In this document: positions 3,368-62,393 of the stretch, piece after piece | Position numbering within the stretch: the first letter of the stretch is position 1 | How the letters are laid out: each line of letters opens with the position of its first letter | Assembly (NCBI RefSeq): GCF_045037415.1 | Contig: NZ_CP173438.1 | DNA from: Escherichia coli | Lineage (GTDB): Bacteria > Pseudomonadota > Gammaproteobacteria > Enterobacterales > Enterobacteriaceae | Direction: 5' to 3' (one strand) | Length of the DNA stretch: 64,000 nucleotides | Position numbers and translations under genes: made by a program | The notes under the pieces: generated by a model | Database searches by the model: none | Told to the model about the DNA's origin: nothing | Seen by the model: the letters and a program-made list of their open reading frames with translations, nothing else

Positions 3368-6300
3368 TTAACTCGCCTGAGAAGGCGCTTCGTCACTTCC
3401 TGGAAGCGTTTCAGGGAGTTGAGGCGCAAATCCTCGCAGGCCGACGACGTGAACGTGTTCGGTATTCTGGAAGACTTTACGTACCAGTTTATAGGTGGTG
3501 CCTTTCTCCGGGCTGATATTTTCCGGCGCTGCGATAATGAGCTGCATTTGCAAACGTTCACACAATTCAAACAGCGTGGCGATGGAACGGGCGTCCAGTC
3601 GCGCTGCTTCATCGAGGAACAGCAGGCGGCAAGGAGAGATATCTTTACCGCGCAGGCGGCGAGATTCATCTTCCCAGCTTTGTACCACCATCACCAGAAT
3701 CGACATACCGGTACCAATCGCCTCACCGGTCGACAATGCACCAGACTCTGCACGCAACCAGCCATCGGAACCACGGTTAACCTCAACTTCCATTTCCAGA
3801 TAGTTGCGGTAATCCAGCAGTTCTTCACCGATGGTCTGCGGCGTGCGCTGCCCCATATCAATCTGCGGGTTAAGACGTTGATACAGTTTCGCCAGCGCTT
3901 CTGAGAAGGTCAGGCGGTTGCTGTTAAACAGATCCTGATGCTGCTCGTGCTGTTCAGAGAGCACATCCAGCAGCATGGCGTGCGTTTCACGTACGTTCAC
4001 GTTCAGACGTACGCTGTTCACCTGGCCAAACGATACGTTCTGCAACCCCTGGTTGAGCATACGGATACGGTTCTGCTCGCGCTGAATGGTTTTGCGAATG
4101 ATGTTCGCCACGCTGCGGGAACTGATCGCCAGTTTCTGTTCACGAGAGGTTAATTCTTCGGTCAGACGGCTAAGCTCGATCTCCATCTGTTCGATAGCTT
4201 CCACCGGATCATCGGTACGAATAATATCCTGACGAATACGTTCACGCAGATGCTGATAAACCGCCACGAAGAACTGAATTTTACGTTCCGGACGTTTTGG
4301 ATCTTCCGACATCCGCAGCACGTCGCGCAGATGTTCGTTATCCGCCACCGCCAGACGCAGCGCACCTAACGCCTTATCCGACATGGAGCGCAAATCATCA
4401 GCGGAGAGATAAGCCAGCTCACGACGGTGTAAGCGACGCTCAACGCCATTATCTTTCACCATGCGCATCACCGCACACCAGCCCGCTTTGGCGGTCACTA
4501 CCTGCTCGCGCATCTCAAAGTAATCCCGCTCCAGCTTGCGCAGTTTACGGGTCAGGTTGTCCATCTCCGCTTCGCAGAAGGTAAGCGCTTTTTCCAGTTG
4601 ATTGCGTCGTGAACGGTTATTGCTCAGTTGCGCGTGCAACTCGTCACGGCGAATACGTGCCCGCTCTTCTGCCCCGCTATCAGCACGCACGCCGATATCC
4701 TGCAATTCACGTTGCAGATCGTTAAGTAGCTCTTTTTTGGTGTCATACGAACTTTTCAGCGAAGCCAGCACCTGGTTGTACTGATTCAACTGCGCTGCGT
4801 GTCCGCGCAACGCTTCACGAGCGCGGGTACGCTCCGCTTCCGCCTGTTCCAGACGTTCACGCAGTTTTTCGTTGAGATCGCTGTTACCGCTAAGCATTTC
4901 TGCCGAGTCAGAGTAGCTAAAGTGCGCACGACGCTGCACCACTTCCGTCAGGGCAAACGCCTGCTGACGGGCATCGCGCTGCATCTGCTGAGAGTACGCG
5001 TAATCTTCTTTTAATTGTTCGAACTGTTCCGGGTCGCTCTGCAATACCGAAACGATCGGCTCCAGTTTCGCCAGTTGATTGCCAAACTGCTGAACAAAAC
5101 GCGCGGCTTCCTGGGCTTCATCCAGACGTTCGCGGATTTCATCGACGCGATCCGCCAGGCTGTCATCAGCCAACAGGTTGAGACGCGGCAGAATGCGGTT
5201 CAGCGCCGTAACGCCCTCTTTCGCCTGCTCAAACTGAATACGCTGCTGCTGGTTATCATTTTCATGATTACTCAACGCCCGTTCCAGTTCGACGCGACGG
5301 CTGTTCAGTTGACGGATTTCTGCTTCCGGGTCAGACTCAAACGCCACCGCCAGATGACTGCCGATAAAGCGGCTGAACGCCTGATGCAGACGCTGGGTTT
5401 TCTGTACATCAAAGGAAAGCGTGGCGAAGCGTTCGGAAAGCACTTCCCGCTCGGCATGGAGGCTTTCAATACGGCTTTCACGCGCAGCACGACCAAACAG
5501 CGGCACTTCCGGGAAACGTGAATAACGCCACTGACGATCGGCGATTTTCACCACCACCGCTTTTTCCAGCTCATCAACGCTGAACACGCTGTCATCGAAT
5601 GACTGCGGATCCCCTTCGATCAAATAGAGATCTTCCGGGCAATCGGTCAAGCCTTCCAGGTGTTCGGTTACCTGTGACAGATCTGGCACCACGATGGCGT
5701 GGCGTGACGGGCCATACAGTGCTGAGAAGTACGGCGCATCTTCCAGGCTAACGTCGTCATAAATTTCTGACAGCAGCACACCACCAAAACGCTCCGCCAG
5801 CGCGTTCAGACGCTGATCTTCAGAACCACCTGGCTGGCTTAAACGTTCGATCTCTTCATCGACGGCGTTTTTGCGCGCGCCTACTTCATCGCGTTCAACA
5901 ATTGCCTCGCGCTCACGCTCCAGCAACTGTTGCAGAAATTCGGTGACATCCTGGCTGGAGGTGAACTCTTCGCCGCACTGTTCGCTCAACTGGTTGAGAC
6001 TGTTTTGCGCTGCCAGCCAAACCGGCGCACGCTGCATCAAACTCTGAATGCGAGACTGCAGCTGTTCCTGCTCCTGGCGCAGTGCCATCCGCTCTTCTCG
6101 GGCGTTAGAGACGCTATCGGAAAGAGAGGCAATGCGTGCTTCCAGCTCCTGATGCAGAGCTTCCAGTTCATCAATATCAAAATTCTTGCCCTGACGTTTG
6201 CAGAAATCTGCCAGCAGACGCTCAGCTTCTTGCTGCTCACGCAGACGCTGTTCCAGTTCGCTTAAGCGCATCCGCAACGGCTGAACCTGCTCTGCCAGGT

Positions 6301-56783: not shown

Positions 56784-57354
56784 GCCATTACAACTCCCGC
56801 CACCGCTTGAGGGTGATATCAGTCTCAGGACGCTGGGAAGACTGGCAGGACGGCTGGATAACATCGACCTGAGCGTACTGATGGTCTTTCTCGTCGATAT
56901 CGTCGACAGTTCCGCGCTGCCATGGCTGGGCGAGCAGTTCTCACTGTCTGGCGATGGCTGGGAGCTGGCGGAATCGGACGATGTTCGCCGCATGCTTATA
57001 AAAGCAGCCATCGAACTGCACCGGTATAAAGGGACGCCGTGGTCAATCCGGGAAGTTATCCGCCGTTTTGGCTTTGGTGAAGTGGATCTGATTGAAGGCA
57101 CAGGTCGTCTCAGTTACGACGGCAATCGCAGCTATAACGGACTGTTTGTTCATGGAGATGCAGCCGCCTGGGCAGTTTATCGCGTTATTCTGAAACAGCC
57201 CATTACTAACGATCAGGCCGCGATGCTGCGTCAGACGCTGGCTGCATTTGCACCGGCCCGCTGCCATCTGGCCAGCCTGGAGTATCAGTCTGTGGCCATT
57301 CGCTATAACAATACCGCCATCCATGATGGCAGTTATAACCACGGGAGCAGTTGA
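56776..57354 (+). CDS. Baseplate/tail protein (gpI-like)
   Basis: 192 aa; overlaps J-like stop and fibre start. Confidence 0.5.
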   Translation: MTEPLQLPPPLEGDISLRTLGRLAGRLDNIDLSVLMVFLVDIVDSSALPWLGEQFSLSGDGWELAESDDVRRMLIKAAIELHRYKGTPWSIREVIRRFGFGEVDLIEGTGRLSYDGNRSYNGLFVHGDAAAWAVYRVILKQPITNDQAAMLRQTLAAFAPARCHLASLEYQSVAIRYNNTAIHDGSYNHGSS

Positions 57355-58688
57355 TTATGGGAAACCTGAATGAAACAGAAAAGTGGGAAGAAAATATCTA
57401 TCAACTGGAGACATCAGATCCGGTTCTGGGTGGTGCAGACGGGATATCAAATCGAGCCCCCCGGCAACTGGCAAACAGGACGAAATGGCTGAAGAAGAAA
57501 ACGGAGGAAGCCGCACAGTCACTGGCTGAACACGTACGTTCCCGTAACCACCCGGACGCGACACTGACAGCTAAGGGGTTCACCCAACTGAGCAGTGCCA
57601 CCAACAGCACCTCTGAAACGCTGGCCGCCACACCAAAAGCGGTCAAGGCTGCATACGACCTGGCAGCCGGCAAGGCGCCTGCCAGCCACACTCACCCGTG
57701 GAGTCAGATAACGGGAGTGCCTGCGGCTTCACTGACGGCAAAAGGCACCGTACAACTGAGCAGCGCCACGGACAGTCAATCAGAAACTGAGGCTGCCACG
57801 CCGAAGGCGGTCAAGGCTGCATACGACCTTGCAGCCGGCAAGGCGCCCGTCAGCCACACTCACCCGTGGAGTCAGATAACGGGAGTGCCTGCTGCCTCGC
57901 TGACGGCAAAAGGCACCGTACAATTGAGCAGTGCCATCAACAGCACGTCTGAAATACTGGCCGCCACACCGAAAGCGGTCAAGGCTGCATACGATCTGGC
58001 AAACGGAAAACAACCGGCAGATGCCACGCTCACTGCTCTGGCAGGACTTGCCACTGCAGCAGATCGGTTGCCTTATTTTACCGGAGCAGACCGCGCAGAG
58101 CTGGCAACCCTTACAGCTATTGGTCGCGCTATTATCGCTAAGGGCAGTATAAAAGATGTCCTCAATTACCTTGGTTTAGGAGAAGGCTCGGCGCTACCCG
58201 TTGGTGTGCCTGTTCCGTGGCCCACCGCCACACCGCCAGCAGGCTGGTTAAAGTGCGACGGGCGCGCCTTTACAAAAGAACAATATCCTGTTCTGGCCAG
58301 AGTCTACCCGACCCTCCGTCTTCCCGATTTACGCGGTGAGTTTATCCGTGGATGGGACGACGGGCGCAAAGTTGATACAGGACGTAAGTTGCTGTCCGCA
58401 CAAGGGGCAACGCTGTTAAGAACAGCAATGCTGGATTATTATAACCAGGACACTACGGGAACCTCGGGGATAGTCGGCATGGGATTCAACAATGAAGATT
58501 CCATTACAGACCTTCGTGAGGGCAGCTTTAAAATGCCGGACGGGACAACATTCAGCGATCCTGTCGTGGCAATGTCAGACAATGGTATGCAGGCTACTAT
58601 TCTGACCTCTATCAGAAGCGGGTATGCGAAGGGTATCACTGTCAGACCCCGTAGCATTGCACTTAATTACATTGTGAGGGCAGTTTAA
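57351..58688 (+). CDS. Tail fibre protein (constant N-terminal part fused to variable C-terminal cassette 1)
   Basis: 445 aa; three tandem fibre repeats (TAKG.QLSSAT.S.SE..AATPKAVKAAYDLA.GK); C-terminal part homologous to the two inverted cassettes. Confidence 0.8.
   Translation: MIMGNLNETEKWEENIYQLETSDPVLGGADGISNRAPRQLANRTKWLKKKTEEAAQSLAEHVRSRNHPDATLTAKGFTQLSSATNSTSETLAATPKAVKAAYDLAAGKAPASHTHPWSQITGVPAASLTAKGTVQLSSATDSQSETEAATPKAVKAAYDLAAGKAPVSHTHPWSQITGVPAASLTAKGTVQLSSAINSTSEILAATPKAVKAAYDLANGKQPADATLTALAGLATAADRLPYFTGADRAELATLTAIGRAIIAKGSIKDVLNYLGLGEGSALPVGVPVPWPTATPPAGWLKCDGRAFTKEQYPVLARVYPTLRLPDLRGEFIRGWDDGRKVDTGRKLLSAQGATLLRTAMLDYYNQDTTGTSGIVGMGFNNEDSITDLREGSFKMPDGTTFSDPVVAMSDNGMQATILTSIRSGYAKGITVRPRSIALNYIVRAV
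57561..58005 (+). repeat. Three tandem copies of about 50-aa tail-fibre repeat
   Basis: Protein-level repeat seen directly in the translation. Confidence 0.7.
58160..58185. other. Candidate invertase crossover site 1 (gix/hix-like)
   Basis: TCCTCAATTACC-TT-GGTTTAGGAGAA; right half-site complement TTCTCCTAAACC resembles Gin/Hin half-site TTCCTGTAAACC; at constant/variable junction of fibre gene. Confidence 0.55.
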
Positions 58689-59302
58689 TGAGTAACACTG
58701 CAGTTCTGGATGAAAACGGTATCGCCACTGTAGCGGGCGATATCACTGTATATCACTATGACGAGGAAACCCGGGAATACACCTCATCCTCTGTGGAGTA
58801 TCTCGCCCTTGGGGTGGGTACTCCGGCACATTCGTGCGCCGATGCACCGCCGGAAGCAATTTCGGGTTACGTGGTTTGCCGGACTGCCACGCTGAACGGG
58901 TGGGAGCATGTGCCTGATCACCGCGGCGAGACGGTATACAGCACGGAGAACGGTAACCCCGTTCTGATTACCCAACCGGGTGATTACCCGGCGGACACCA
59001 CCACAAAACAGCCAGCCACGCCATGGGATACCTGGAACGGTGAGGCGTGGGTAACCGATACTGAACGGCAGCGAGCCGCAGAACTGGAGGTTGCCAGACA
59101 GCAACGCCAGCAACGGGTGAAACAGGCGATGGCGTCCGTCGATCTTATCAACCTCAAACTGCGTGCTGGTCGCAGTCTGAAACCAGAAGAAACGGCAAAA
59201 CTGAACGCCGTGCTGGATTATATCGACGAGCTGAACGCACTGGATATCAGCAAGGCACCTGAAATCAGCTGGCCGGAAGCGCCACTGGCGCTTGCCGGCT
59301 GA
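58688..59302 (+). CDS. Tail fibre assembly protein (putative)
   Basis: 204 aa; ATGA-coupled to fibre stop. Confidence 0.5.
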   Translation: MSNTAVLDENGIATVAGDITVYHYDEETREYTSSSVEYLALGVGTPAHSCADAPPEAISGYVVCRTATLNGWEHVPDHRGETVYSTENGNPVLITQPGDYPADTTTKQPATPWDTWNGEAWVTDTERQRAAELEVARQQRQQRVKQAMASVDLINLKLRAGRSLKPEETAKLNAVLDYIDELNALDISKAPEISWPEAPLALAG

Positions 59303-59308
59303 ACGGTA

Positions 59309-59770
59309 TCACGCCGCCCTCACGATATAGTTAAATGCGATATTGCGGGGGCGAGCTGATACATAAGCCCACCAGTCATATCTTTGTGCACCTTTAGAGG
59401 ATGCATCAAATATCCACTTTTTGCCATTTAAGACCCCCAGTTGATTAGAGGTTAAAGCGTCACCAAATCCGTATTGTGTAGAGCCGAGCGAACTGATATC
59501 TCCGGTATCATTATCATCAAAACCGGATACGATAGTCCCTTCCTGAAATGAAAGTAGCGCACGCCCGGTATCAACCTTGCGACCACCGTCCCATCCACGG
59601 ATAAACTCACCGCGCAAATCGGGAAGACGGAGGGTCGGGTAGACTCTGACCAGAACAGGATATTGTTCTTTGGTGAACGTAGCTCCGTTGCACTGTAACC
59701 AGCCTGCTGGCGGTGTGGCGGTGGGCCATGGAACCGGTACACCAACAGGCAATGCAGAGCCTTCCCCCAA
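59309..59770 (-). CDS. Alternative tail-fibre C-terminal cassette 2 (inverted, promoterless)
   Basis: 153 aa; begins GEGSALPVGVPVPWPTATPPAGWL..., ends RPRNIAFNYIVRAA, both matching the resident fibre C-terminus; starts at crossover site 2. Confidence 0.6.
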   Translation of the reverse strand: MGEGSALPVGVPVPWPTATPPAGWLQCNGATFTKEQYPVLVRVYPTLRLPDLRGEFIRGWDGGRKVDTGRALLSFQEGTIVSGFDDNDTGDISSLGSTQYGFGDALTSNQLGVLNGKKWIFDASSKGAQRYDWWAYVSARPRNIAFNYIVRAA

Positions 59771-59787
59771 ACCAACGTTTCTATGCC
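59762..59787. other. Candidate invertase crossover site 2 (inverted relative to site 1)
   Basis: TTCCCCCAAACC-AA-CGTTTCTATGCC. Confidence 0.5.
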
Positions 59788-60209
59788 GCCCTTACGATGT
59801 AATTAAACGCAATGTTACGGGGACGAATGGTCACATAATTAACCCCATCGCCTCGCGAAGGACCTGCAAATGAAAAACGGGAGAATCCAGGTTGGTTGTC
59901 AACGATTTGGTCATAGTTATTGATTGAATGACCAGACCCAATGTCAAAATTACCTGCGTAATGAGAAAAACTTGTACCATCCTGCCGTGAAAGCAGATCG
60001 CGCCCTGTATCCACTTTTCGCCCGTCGTCCCATCCACGGATAAACTCACCGCGTAAATCGGGAAGACGGAGGGTCGGGTAGACTCTGGCCAGAACAGGAT
60101 ATTGTTCTTTTGTAAAGGCGCGCCCGTCGCACTTTAACCAGCCTGCTGGCGGTGTGGCAGTGGGCCACGGAACAGGTACACCAACGGGCAGCGCCGAGCC
60201 TTCCCCCAA
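59781..60209 (-). CDS. Alternative tail-fibre C-terminal cassette 3 (inverted, promoterless)
   Basis: 142 aa; first 70 residues nearly identical to the resident variable part; ends RPRNIAFNYIVRAA. Confidence 0.6.
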   Translation of the reverse strand: MGEGSALPVGVPVPWPTATPPAGWLKCDGRAFTKEQYPVLARVYPTLRLPDLRGEFIRGWDDGRKVDTGRDLLSRQDGTSFSHYAGNFDIGSGHSINNYDQIVDNQPGFSRFSFAGPSRGDGVNYVTIRPRNIAFNYIVRAA

Positions 60210-60227
60210 ACCAACGTTTATCTCTCA
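60202..60227. other. Candidate invertase crossover site 3 (same orientation as site 2)
   Basis: TTCCCCCAAACC-AA-CGTTTATCTCTC; immediately upstream of invertase gene. Confidence 0.5.
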
Positions 60228-60280
60228 AATCCTCCCCACATTATCTCAGTACTTTAACCACTCAAAAGGGAGTATTTTTA

Positions 60281-60853
60281 ATGCTGATTGGCTACATACG
60301 TGTGTCAACAAATGACCAAAACACAGATTTGCAACGCAATGCATTAATGTGCGCAGGATGTGAACAGATTTTTGAGGACAAAATGAGCGGAACCAAGTCG
60401 GAACGACCAGGCCTGAAACGCGCTTTAAAGTGCCTTAAAAGAGGGGATACATTGGTGGTCTGGAAGCTGGATCGGTTGGGTAGAAGAATGAAACACCTCA
60501 TTGCTCTCACAGAAGAGCTACGCGCAAAAGGTGTCAATTTTCGCAGTCTGACGGATTCAATCGATACCAGCACTCCGATGGGAAGGTTCTTTTTTCATAT
60601 GATGGGTGCACTGGCAGAAATGGAGCGTGAACTGATAGTTGAGCGCACGCTGGCTGGACTGGCTGCTGCGCGAGCACAAGGAAGAGTTGGAGGACGTCGC
60701 CCGAAACTGACGAAGGAGCAGCATGAGCAGATCGCAAGATTGCTCCAGAAAGGGTATGACAGAAAGCGGCTGGCAATTATCTATGATATTGGACTGTCAA
60801 CGATCTACCGCTATCACCCTGTTGGGACTGTCATAACGCAACCTGAAATGTAA
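60281..60853 (+). CDS. Serine-recombinase DNA invertase (Gin/Hin/Pin/Cin family)
   Basis: Within ORF 60152..60853; ATG at 60281 after SD aaaggga; N-terminal MLIGYIRVSTNDQNTDLQ with catalytic Ser; C-terminal HTH. Confidence 0.85.
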   Translation: MLIGYIRVSTNDQNTDLQRNALMCAGCEQIFEDKMSGTKSERPGLKRALKCLKRGDTLVVWKLDRLGRRMKHLIALTEELRAKGVNFRSLTDSIDTSTPMGRFFFHMMGALAEMERELIVERTLAGLAAARAQGRVGGRRPKLTKEQHEQIARLLQKGYDRKRLAIIYDIGLSTIYRYHPVGTVITQPEM

Positions 60854-60910
60854 TTCTTTTTCAAATAATGAAACGCCGCGTGGATGCCATTTATCGCACA
60901 AGATAGAGTG

Positions 60911-60931
60911 CATTTATCGCGCGGCGCATCA
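60911..60931 (-). repeat. Prophage right terminal inverted repeat (reverse complement TGATGCGCCGCGCGATAAATG)
   Basis: Ends in CA at 60931; a second GCGATAAATG-like motif at 60888..60897. Confidence 0.6.
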
Positions 60932-60937
60932 TTCTTC
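60932..60937. repeat. Right copy of target-site direct repeat (ttcttc), overlapping displaced ycaL start codon
   Basis: 60932..60939 reads ttcttcat; on minus strand this is ATG AAG AA, i.e. ycaL codons 1-3. Confidence 0.6.
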
Positions 60938-61108
60938 ATGTGAATCATCCGTTGATTAATTATATATAAACATTATGTATCAACAAGTTACATTGATAAT
61001 TAACGCTACCATTAATAAAAATACCCCACAAGGTCCGAAAAAAAACGCCGGCAATGTGCCGACGTCTTTGAAAAGAAAGGATTGTCTATGTTATCGCCCG
61101 TTATTCAT

Positions 61109-62393
61109 TCAGCCGGGTTGACTTATCCGCGCCAATTGCTCGAAATAGTCTGGAAAAGTTTTAGCGGTACATTTTGGATCAAGAATCGTCACAGGCGTAT
61201 CTGATAATGCGACCAGCGAGAAACACATCGCCATCCGGTGATCATTATAAGTGGCGATCTCAGCAAATTTCAGTTTTTCCGGTGGCGTAATGCGAATGAA
61301 ATCATGCCCCTCTTCGACTTCCGCACCGACTTTACGCAGTTCTGTTGCCATCGCAAACAGGCGATCGGTTCTCTTTAACACGCCAGTTATAGATATTGCG
61401 CAGCGTGGTGGTGCCTTTTGCAAATAACGCCGCGGTGGCAATGGTCATCGCCGCATCGGGAATATGGTTCATATCCATATCAATGGCGTTCAGTTCACCA
61501 CGCGTGCAGGAAATATAATCATCGCCCCAGCAAATGGTCGCGCCCATTTTTTCCAGAACATCAGCAAAGCGAATATCACCCTGCATACTGTTGCGTCCAA
61601 TGCCGGTCACTTTTACAGTGCCGCCTCTGATTGCTGCTGCTGCCAGGAAATAAGAAGCCGAAGATGCATCGCCTTCAACCAAATAAGTGCCCGGAGACTG
61701 GTAAGACTGCCCCCCTTTTACGACAAATTGTTGATAGTGCTGATTTTCAATTTCAACACCAAACGTCTTCATCAGATTGAGGGTGATATCGATATAAGGT
61801 TTAGAAACCAGATCGCCTTTAATACGAATCACCGTATCTTCCGGCGCAAGAGGCGCAGTCATTAACAGTGCGGTGAGGAACTGGCTGGAAACGGAGCCAT
61901 CAACATCAACGTTGCCGCCAGTAAAGCCGCCCTGTAAACGCAATGGCGGATAATTTTCTTGTTCCAGGTAAGTGATCTTCGCCCCGCCCTGGCGCAGCGC
62001 ATCCACCAGATGACCAATCGGGCGTTCTTTCATTCGCGGTTCACCGCTCAGTACAATATCATTGCTACCCAGGCAAAGTGCTGCCGCCAGCGGACGCATT
62101 GCCGTTCCGGCGTTACCGAGGAACAACTCCCGGGCACTTTCTGCGTGTAATGGACCACCGTTACCGATAATTTCGCAACGCGTACGATCGGCTGAAAGCG
62201 TATAGCTTACCCCTAACGCTGTTAATGCATTCAGCATATGGCGCACGTCATCGCTATCCAGCAGATTGGTTAATACTGTTTTGCCGTGTGCTAATGCCGC
62301 CAGCAATAAAGCGCGGTTAGAAACGCTCTTGGAACCGGGCAGATTAATAGTGCCATCGACACGAGCGATGGGTTGTAACGTTAGGGATTCCAT
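61109..62393 (-). pseudogene. aroA: aroA (EPSP synthase) with internal +1 frameshift
   Basis: N-terminal 353 codons (61332..62393) read ...NIYNWRVKE then go out of frame; AroA sequence resumes as [16 protein letters not shown]... in ORF 61109..61441. Consistent with a 1-bp insertion at the GGTT at 61367..61370. Confidence 0.75.

Follow-up and report, generated by a model that had tools for sequence, protein, structure and literature searches.

How many tail-fiber tips can be made from the fiber and invertase module at 57351-60853 of a 64,000-nt stretch of Escherichia coli DNA (contig NZ_CP173438.1, hereafter the window), and how are they exchanged? A first-pass annotation had proposed that three gix-like sites next to a Gin-family invertase switch the tail-fiber gene among three C-termini. 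Over 57351-60853 the window was 100% identical to EC958, JJ1887 and many further genomes of sequence type 131 (ST131). This identity indicated that the window is a segment of an E. coli ST131 chromosome and that the locus is prophage Phi2 of strain EC958. From the evidence below, the module is very probably a Gin-type multiple-inversion host-range switch of this Mu-like prophage, with one invertase, three sites, four isomers and three tips.

Crossover sites

The window was searched with the pattern TTCYCCYAAACCAASGT, allowing up to two mismatches. Exactly three matches were found, at 58168-58184 (minus strand), 59762-59778 (plus strand) and 60201-60217 (plus strand). The expectation from shuffled sequences was 0.07, and no shuffle reached three matches. 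The 26-bp sites so defined (Table 1) have a central AA/TT dinucleotide, with site 1 in the opposite orientation to the other two. The three gix-like sites and their opposite orientations had been correctly recognized in the first-pass annotation. Its position for site 2 was also exact, and those for site 1 (58160..58185) and site 3 (60202..60227) were off by one base.

The half-site TTCYCCYAAACC, which encodes GLGEG, and the central AA were common to all three sites. Each site consisted of this 'cassette' half and a 'flank' half, the latter being the end of the constant part of the fiber gene (Sc), the stop-codon region of cassette 3 or the leader of the invertase gene. The sites fitted the consensus tabulated in Forde et al. 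2014 (PMC4134206), in Table 3 of which 'Phi2_5prime' is identical to site 1. The center of site 3 was 67 nt upstream of the ATG of the invertase gene, the same distance as from gixR to gin in Mu.

Isomers and the position of the exchange

In the mechanism that we propose, one Gin-family serine invertase would act at the three 26-bp crossover sites. Strand exchange at the central AA/TT would always rejoin a flank half to a cassette half, and for this reason two segments would be both invertible and permutable. Segment A comprises the variable cassette Sv1, the assembly gene tfa and the inverted cassette Sv2 (58173-59773, 1601 nt), and segment B the inverted cassette Sv3 (59776-60212, 437 nt). 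The isomers would form a cycle, in which each is reached from two others by a small (~1.6 kb) or a large (~2.0 kb) inversion. They place Sv1, Sv2 or Sv3 (the last in two isomers) in frame behind the constant part.

Because every site is composed of one cassette half and one flank half, only four arrangements are possible. All four isomers, each 3503 nt long, were built in silico with the exchange placed at the central dinucleotide, and were compared with complete chromosomes. Each predicted isomer matched a different complete ST131 chromosome at 3503 of 3503 nt, with no mismatch. Isomer I0, the arrangement of the window, expresses Sv1 and was found exactly in EC958. I1, in which segment A is inverted and Sv2 is expressed, was found exactly in AR_0055. 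The two isomers that express Sv3 both begin with B, followed by A in I2 and by inverted A in I3; they were found exactly in AR_0086 and in strain 4/4, respectively. These natural isomers support the inversions between site 1 and site 2 or 3 that had been postulated in the first-pass annotation, since each arrangement predicted from the site layout has an exact counterpart among them. Since both I1 and I2 require an exchange at site 2, this site is used.

Going outward from the core, the partner sites first diverge at the base that immediately precedes it and at the sixth base that follows. The real genomes matched the predictions exactly between these flanking polymorphisms. This confined the crossover to the 7 nt TTGGTTT.

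Seven junction queries were run against 5426 complete E. coli genomes, and matches of 100% identity were counted. The rearranged junctions were found in 166 (c|a2), 157 (c|b2), 185 (b1|a1), 180 (a2|r) and 226 (a1|r) of these genomes, and the remaining two in 283 (c|a1) and 287 (b2|r). These figures are given as junction counts and not as isomer frequencies, because they do not close, as discussed below. Each of the four isomers is common among the ST131 genomes that have been sequenced.

One Swedish series contained several similarly named isolates in different states. Isolates 4/1-1 (NZ_CP023844.1) and 2/0 (NZ_CP023853.1) were I0, 4/4 (NZ_CP023826.1) was I3, and 4/0 (NZ_CP023849.1) was I2 with an additional inversion between prophages. 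Should 4/0, 4/1-1 and 4/4 have been isolated from a single patient, their states would mean switching within a host.

The invertase and a candidate enhancer

The gene adjoining site 3 encodes a protein with the Pfam domains Resolvase (E = 1e-50) and HTH_7 (E = 2e-12). It matched the Mu Gin structures 4m6f and 3uj3 over residues 1-181 (E = 2e-93), with its YIRVSTNDQ motif aligned with Gin, and the Hin DNA-binding domain with E = 1e-10. The assignment of this neighbor to the Gin family in the first-pass annotation was thus sound. The gene together with its leader was 82% identical in nucleotides to the gixR-gin 5' region of Mu. The protein was 86% identical to the invertase of a fiber module in enteropathogenic E. 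coli (EPEC) strain E2348/69.

The basic helix-B residues (Hin 47, 48 and 51) and Gln151, Arg154 and Leu155 of helix 1 of the DNA-binding domain are reported to be conserved only in Fis-dependent invertases (McLean et al., PMC3798978). RPGLKRALK and EQIARLL were present in the Phi2 invertase, aligned with Gin, and the residues of the Fis/enhancer-contact set named in that report were kept. Candidate Fis motifs were found at about +95 (GTGTCAACAAATGAC) and +144 (GCGCAGGATGTGAAC) from the center of site 3. G-N13-C motifs stood at equal offsets (+95 and +144) in Phi2, EPEC and Mu. For comparison, the Hin enhancer lies ~100 bp from hixL (PMC3798978). We infer that host Fis would assist the invertase from an enhancer at the 5' end of the invertase gene.

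The domains, the sequence relationship, the 26-bp sites, the Fis-contact residues and the inversion at the core are those of the Gin/Hin/Cin/Pin (Din) family. Neither the invertase nor tfa nor the cassettes had a match above the curated cut-offs of NCBIfam; their assignments came from PHROGs and Pfam.

Fiber gene, cassettes and tfa

The constant part of the fiber gene holds three tandem direct repeats of 168 nt (57562-58065), each corresponding to one Phage_fiber_2 repeat, with 83% and 65% identity to the first copy. An alternative TTG start is present at 57351.

The Sv2 and Sv3 cassettes, on the minus strand, lack their own start. Inversion connects them in frame to the constant part, and the fibers computed for the three cassettes are 443, 426 and 415 amino acids long. 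This agreed with the first-pass annotation, in which sites 2 and 3 were held to head promoterless inverted cassettes for alternative C-termini. The three cassettes have in common the first ~70 residues (GLGEG...collar) and the last ~13 (RPRxIAxNYIVRA), and diverge over the central 60-90 residues, presumed to be the receptor-binding tip. All three are intact open reading frames (ORFs), and none has lost the collar domain or the RPRNIAFNYIVRA motif at the C-terminus. The three alternative C-termini are thus three different tips by sequence. The three receptor-binding specificities named in the first-pass annotation may follow from this difference.

The Sv3 tip was 86% identical to the nested/fused tip of EPEC, and ~62% identical to the fiber tips of phages mEp043 and 500465-2. 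The Sv2 tip had almost no relatives among 50,697 phage records. The ATG of tfa overlaps the stop codon of Sv1 (TAATG), and the gene showed 59% identity to tfa of EPEC, 52% to that of phage 500465-2 and 39% to that of mEp043.

The Prokaryotic Genome Annotation Pipeline (PGAP) called the fiber gene as fragments or a pseudogene in every isomer examined.

The flank half of site 2 (59776-59787) is formed by the final sense codon of the preceding cassette and its stop codon (..GCA TAG AAACG). The same build was seen in EPEC (GCA TGA AAACG) and in a P1/p15B-type phage (GCA TAA AAACG). In the comparison loci, the corresponding stretches lay at ~4623-4648 (locus L012) and at ~5210-5235 and 5701-5726 (locus L011). 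Each cassette of ~440 nt carries the cassette half-site at its 5' end and the flank half-site at its 3' end. Because of the half-site at each end, insertion of a cassette in tandem automatically makes a complete site. This could be a simple route for the growth of such arrays.

Table 1. Features of the Phi2 fiber and invertase module in window coordinates, and the joints found in strain 4/0
Feature	Coordinates	Strand	Remarks
Sc, constant part of the tail-fiber gene	57357..58170	+	ORF 57351-58688; three Phage_fiber_2 and Collar (Pfam)
Crossover site 1, TTCTCCTAAACC AA GGTAATTGAGGA on the minus strand	58159..58184	-	Constant/variable boundary in the fiber gene (..LNYL|GLGEG..)
Cassette 1 (Sv1), collar domain and variable tip	58173..58688	+	Tip expressed in the window arrangement
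tfa, single tail-fiber assembly (chaperone) gene	58688..59302	+	phrog_105 'tail fiber assembly', E = 3e-87; PGAP annotation
Cassette 2 (Sv2), promoterless, inverted	59309..59773	-	In segment A with Sv1 and tfa
Crossover site 2, TTCCCCCAAACC AA CGTTTCTATGCC	59762..59787	+	Cassette 3 stop codon inside the right half
Cassette 3 (Sv3), promoterless, inverted, without its own tfa	59781..60212	-	Forms nested segment B
Crossover site 3, TTCCCCCAAACC AA CGTTTATCTCTC	60201..60226	+	Matches 'Phi2_3prime' of Forde 2014 (PMC4134206)
Gin/Din-family serine DNA invertase, 190 amino acids	60281..60853	+	Catalytic Ser9 in YIRVSTNDQ; phrog_125 DNA invertase, E = 1e-94
Putative recombinational enhancer	60302..60365	+	Within the 5' end of the invertase gene; proposed from homology
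Joints in strain 4/0	L018 ~5300-5313; L020 ~4255-4269		NZ_CP023849.1

Alternative explanations

Several points weigh against the switch as proposed. Binding of distinct receptors by the three tips, and infectivity of the virions made with each of them, are presumed, and the enhancer is a candidate by homology. There is only one tfa, which is antisense to the fiber operon in I1 and I3; Sv2 is for this reason never co-oriented with it. The Sv3-like tips of phages mEp043 and 500465-2, on the other hand, are directly followed by tfa. The junction counts cannot be sorted cleanly into four classes, as c|b2 gave 157 but a2|r and a1|r together gave 406. Since the genomes are of different strains, the counts also tell that switching happened, and not its rate.

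Two candidate causes of the non-closing counts were considered. Joining of neighboring pieces by the basic local alignment search tool (BLAST) across a shared region of 229 nt predicted 189 for b2|r, against the observed 287, and was rejected as the full explanation. A two-site variant without segment B gained no support from four inspected genomes with the a2|r junction, all of which were plain I2. The counts are likely to reflect a second, near-identical P2-like module, recombinants between prophages, two-site relatives (phage 503046) and non-ST131 strains that share cassettes.

The alternative that survived best accepts the switch as real and disputes the three specificities. Fibers with Sv2, and those of the antisense-tfa states, would fold poorly or fail to work. 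This would leave a switch of one or two specificities whose other states are 'off', or the module would be decaying in a domesticated prophage. This would fit the single tfa and its antisense position in two isomers, the scarcity of relatives of the Sv2 tip, and the related Sv3-type tips of other phages, which always have tfa immediately downstream. It would also fit the lack of a detectable sigma-70-like promoter for independent expression of tfa: a scan of 57300-60970 found no promoter or terminator, though it also missed the promoter of the invertase and is hence insensitive and uninformative. On the other hand, all three cassettes are intact, with collar domain and C-terminal motif. The single-tfa layout is kept in the EPEC module in spite of its divergence (tfa 59%, invertase 86%), and tandem cassettes without tfa are found also in a P1/p15B-type phage. 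Conservation across these elements argues for function, and the gene set of the prophage looks complete. We consider this alternative unlikely.

The retention of the same layout in EPEC also argues that a single tfa works in the proposed three-tip switch. Either one Tfa would serve all tips via their common C-terminal motif, with another route of expression, or some states would yield fibers made without the chaperone. In a weaker reading, the orientation of tfa flips with segment A, and I2 and I3, which both express Sv3 but have tfa in sense and antisense, could have different phenotypes, so that three cassettes would yield four states.

A second alternative replaces the invertase by RecA-dependent homologous recombination. 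Each crossover site heads a 229-nt repeat, of which the copy at 58168-58396 is 94% complementary to that at 59989-60217 and 85% to that at 59550-59778. Long imperfect inverted repeats of this kind flank the segments, and homologous recombination between such repeats inverts DNA. Exchange inside the repeats, however, would give chimeric cassette heads, and the natural isomers followed the core-exchange predictions without a mismatch. The 7 nt to which the crossover was confined lie at the extreme edge of the homology, with unrelated sequence beyond. In strain 4/0, the central AA was the exact end of the identity to I2. The segments also adjoin the gene of a Gin-family invertase, and the sites match it. 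The confinement to 7 nt ruled out homologous recombination in the repeats as the main route, and we regard this explanation as very improbable.

The weakest alternative, a two-state switch in which only the outer sites 1 and 3 invert and site 2 is an inactive relic between tandem cassettes, would fit the two crossover sites and one 2067-bp invertible segment listed for Phi2 in Forde et al. 2014 (PMC4134206), but is hardly credible, being refuted, unless the assemblies are wrong, by the exact presence in complete genomes of I1 and I2, which arise only by exchange at site 2. The c|a2 and b1|a1 junctions at 100% identity in 166 and 185 genomes, and the small inversion seen directly in the EPEC module by polymerase chain reaction (PCR) and sequencing (PMC4272514), also speak against it.

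As a multiple-inversion switch, the module would be a textbook bet-hedging device, by which part of each prophage burst carries a different receptor-binding tip. There are three tips, not two, in the globally dominant pandemic clone ST131. In genome projects the locus repeatedly gives rise to assembly 'errors' and spurious contigs, and its annotation comes out fragmented. The Phi2 module may offer a natural test-bed for the logic of multi-site serine invertases, and its tip cassettes with standard half-sites may serve as portable parts for engineering of phage host range. These points on annotation, test-bed and engineering leave current understanding unchanged.

Probable recombination between prophages in strain 4/0

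ST131 strain 4/0 (NZ_CP023849.1) carries an EPEC-type P2-like prophage ~44 kb from Phi2. Compared with E2348/69, its protein I was 100% and its invertase 99% identical. Identity between the Phi2 module of this strain and I2 extended over exactly 2864 nt and ended with the central AA of the outer site (site 3 of the window, 60201-60226). Beyond the central AA, the sequence continued into the P2-like fiber gene, giving an in-frame hybrid fiber of 570 amino acids with a P2-type shaft and the Phi2 Sv2 tip. At the reciprocal joint, the P2-like cassette array was linked to the Phi2 invertase gene, aroA and serC, so that the array stood between two invertase genes. The distance between the two joints (Table 1) was 43.6 kb, and the DNA that they enclose, with aroA, serC and ycaP, was inverted.

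In this one assembly, the joints are what would be expected as the product of site-specific recombination between the sites of the two prophages, that is, a 43.6-kb chromosomal inversion. Tentatively, and with slightly less than even confidence, we suggest that the sites of Phi2 and the near-identical sites of a co-resident, unrelated P2-like prophage may form one network, in which the invertases would exchange fiber cassettes between different phages and incidentally invert the chromosome between them. The evidence for such recombination between modules of two prophages, with its inversion of ~44 kb, is the only result here that goes beyond the accessible literature.

The host prophage and its surroundings

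The fiber and invertase module occupies the right-hand end of a ~37-kb prophage that sits between ycaL and aroA. Its genes include a DDE transposase, Gam, Mor, and a baseplate and tail of Mu/P2 type. It is therefore a Mu-like (BcepMu-type) transposable prophage, and its gene set appears complete.

The exact ends of the prophage were TG at 23887 and CA at 60931 (regions 23881-23890 and 60928-60937), which makes it 37,045 bp long. A 6-bp target duplication, TTCTTC, flanks it. Relative to K-12, the insertion point is in codons 2-4 of ycaL, which is thereby severed from its native start and promoter. The GATAAATG motifs at both ends are likely transposase-binding sites.

In aroA (61109-62393, minus strand), one extra T was found at 61366-61372 of the window (GGTTCTC, as against GGTCTC in EC958). 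It frameshifts the gene into two ORFs, 61332-62393 and 61109-61441. The extra T was absent from the 5426 complete E. coli genomes, the best match being 200/201. Either the extra base is a sequencing error, or the source strain has an aroA-null mutation of its own.

Comparison with known systems

The first-pass annotation had set the locus above the two-state G segment of Mu and C segment of P1, which implied novelty. This did not hold: the locus (Forde et al. 2014, PMC4134206) and the three-site, four-isomer design (Goldberg et al. 2014, PMC4272514) were both published in 2014. What is added here for Phi2 is that site 2 is used, and that all four isomers are documented from other genomes.

Forde et al. 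2014 (PLoS One 9:e104400, PMC4134206) reported a separate PacBio contig from an EC958 culture in which the Phi2 segment is inverted (site 1 by site 3). It is the same locus, and the 2067-bp invertible segment is the interval flagged in the first-pass annotation. The accessible part of that report describes two sites and a mirror-image switch of two alleles, with no mention in that part of an internal site or a third cassette. In a preprint, switching was confirmed by PCR in prophage 'Entero_P88' of ST131 'Bone' isolates. We take this to be the same type of prophage, because the like-named phage record PV468777 (ST131 host) matches at 99.9%.

The closest counterpart is the 'complex phase variation' module of EPEC E2348/69 (Goldberg et al. 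2014, Genome Med 6:112, PMC4272514), with three repeats, four variants and three C-termini. The four variants coexist, as found by PCR and deep sequencing (PMC4272514). Like Phi2, this module has three sites, four isomers, three C-termini, one tfa in the larger segment and the invertase gene beside the outer site. The inversions measure 2008 and 1576 bp, with a nested 432 bp, in EPEC, and 2042, 1603 and 439 bp (site center to center) in Phi2. The sites are near-identical, with TTCCCCCAAACCAA(G/C)G... in EPEC, and identity is 86% for the invertases, 86% for the nested tips and 59% for tfa. The layout of the EPEC locus is that of I3. The carrier in EPEC is P2-like, whereas that of Phi2 is Mu-like (BcepMu-type), and two of the three EPEC tips are unrelated to those of Phi2 (~50% identity, mostly in the common collar).

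The Min system of plasmid p15B is the classical multi-site precedent for multiple inversion. It is located on a P1-type plasmid prophage and, with its six sites, has hundreds of isomers. It resembles Phi2 in using one Din-family invertase at more than two crossover sites among tail-fiber cassettes, and Phi2 would be a minimal, three-site version. Min dates from 1990 (Sandmeier et al., PNAS 87:1109). In the P1/p15B-like phage vB_EcoM-673R5, sites that hardly differ from site 2, such as TTCCCCCAAACCAACGTTTTTATGCC, stand between tandem cassettes of ~440-490 nt that have no tfa.

The G segment of Mu (Gin), the C segment of P1 (Cin) and the P segment of e14 (Pin) have, like Phi2, a crossover site at the constant/variable boundary of the fiber gene and the invertase gene just outside the segment. 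They differ in having two sites, two states and a chaperone for each cassette (S-U and S'-U' in the Mu record), whereas Phi2 has three sites, three cassettes and one tfa. The two mirror-image pairs of cassette and chaperone between two sites, which characterize the Mu G type, were thus not found in Phi2. The R64/IncI shufflon (Rci) also swaps the C-terminus of a receptor-recognition protein by multiple inversion (PMC9881135, PMC4272514). It does so with the tyrosine recombinase Rci at sfx sites and on the pilus adhesin PilV, in contrast to the serine invertase and the phage tail fiber of Phi2, which sets Phi2 apart from shufflons of the R64 type.

Escherichia phage 503046 (CP025887.1, 3075-4715 of locus L007) is ~98% identical to Phi2 over Sc, Sv1 and tfa. 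It carries no more than two sites and one alternative cassette, the tip of which is 42% identical to that of Sv2. This phage is either an ancestral two-state form or the product of a deletion between the directly repeated sites 2 and 3. Phi2 itself, with more than two sites served by one invertase, tandem promoterless cassettes, all the predicted isomers and homology to the EPEC module, has the features of a multiple-inversion module.

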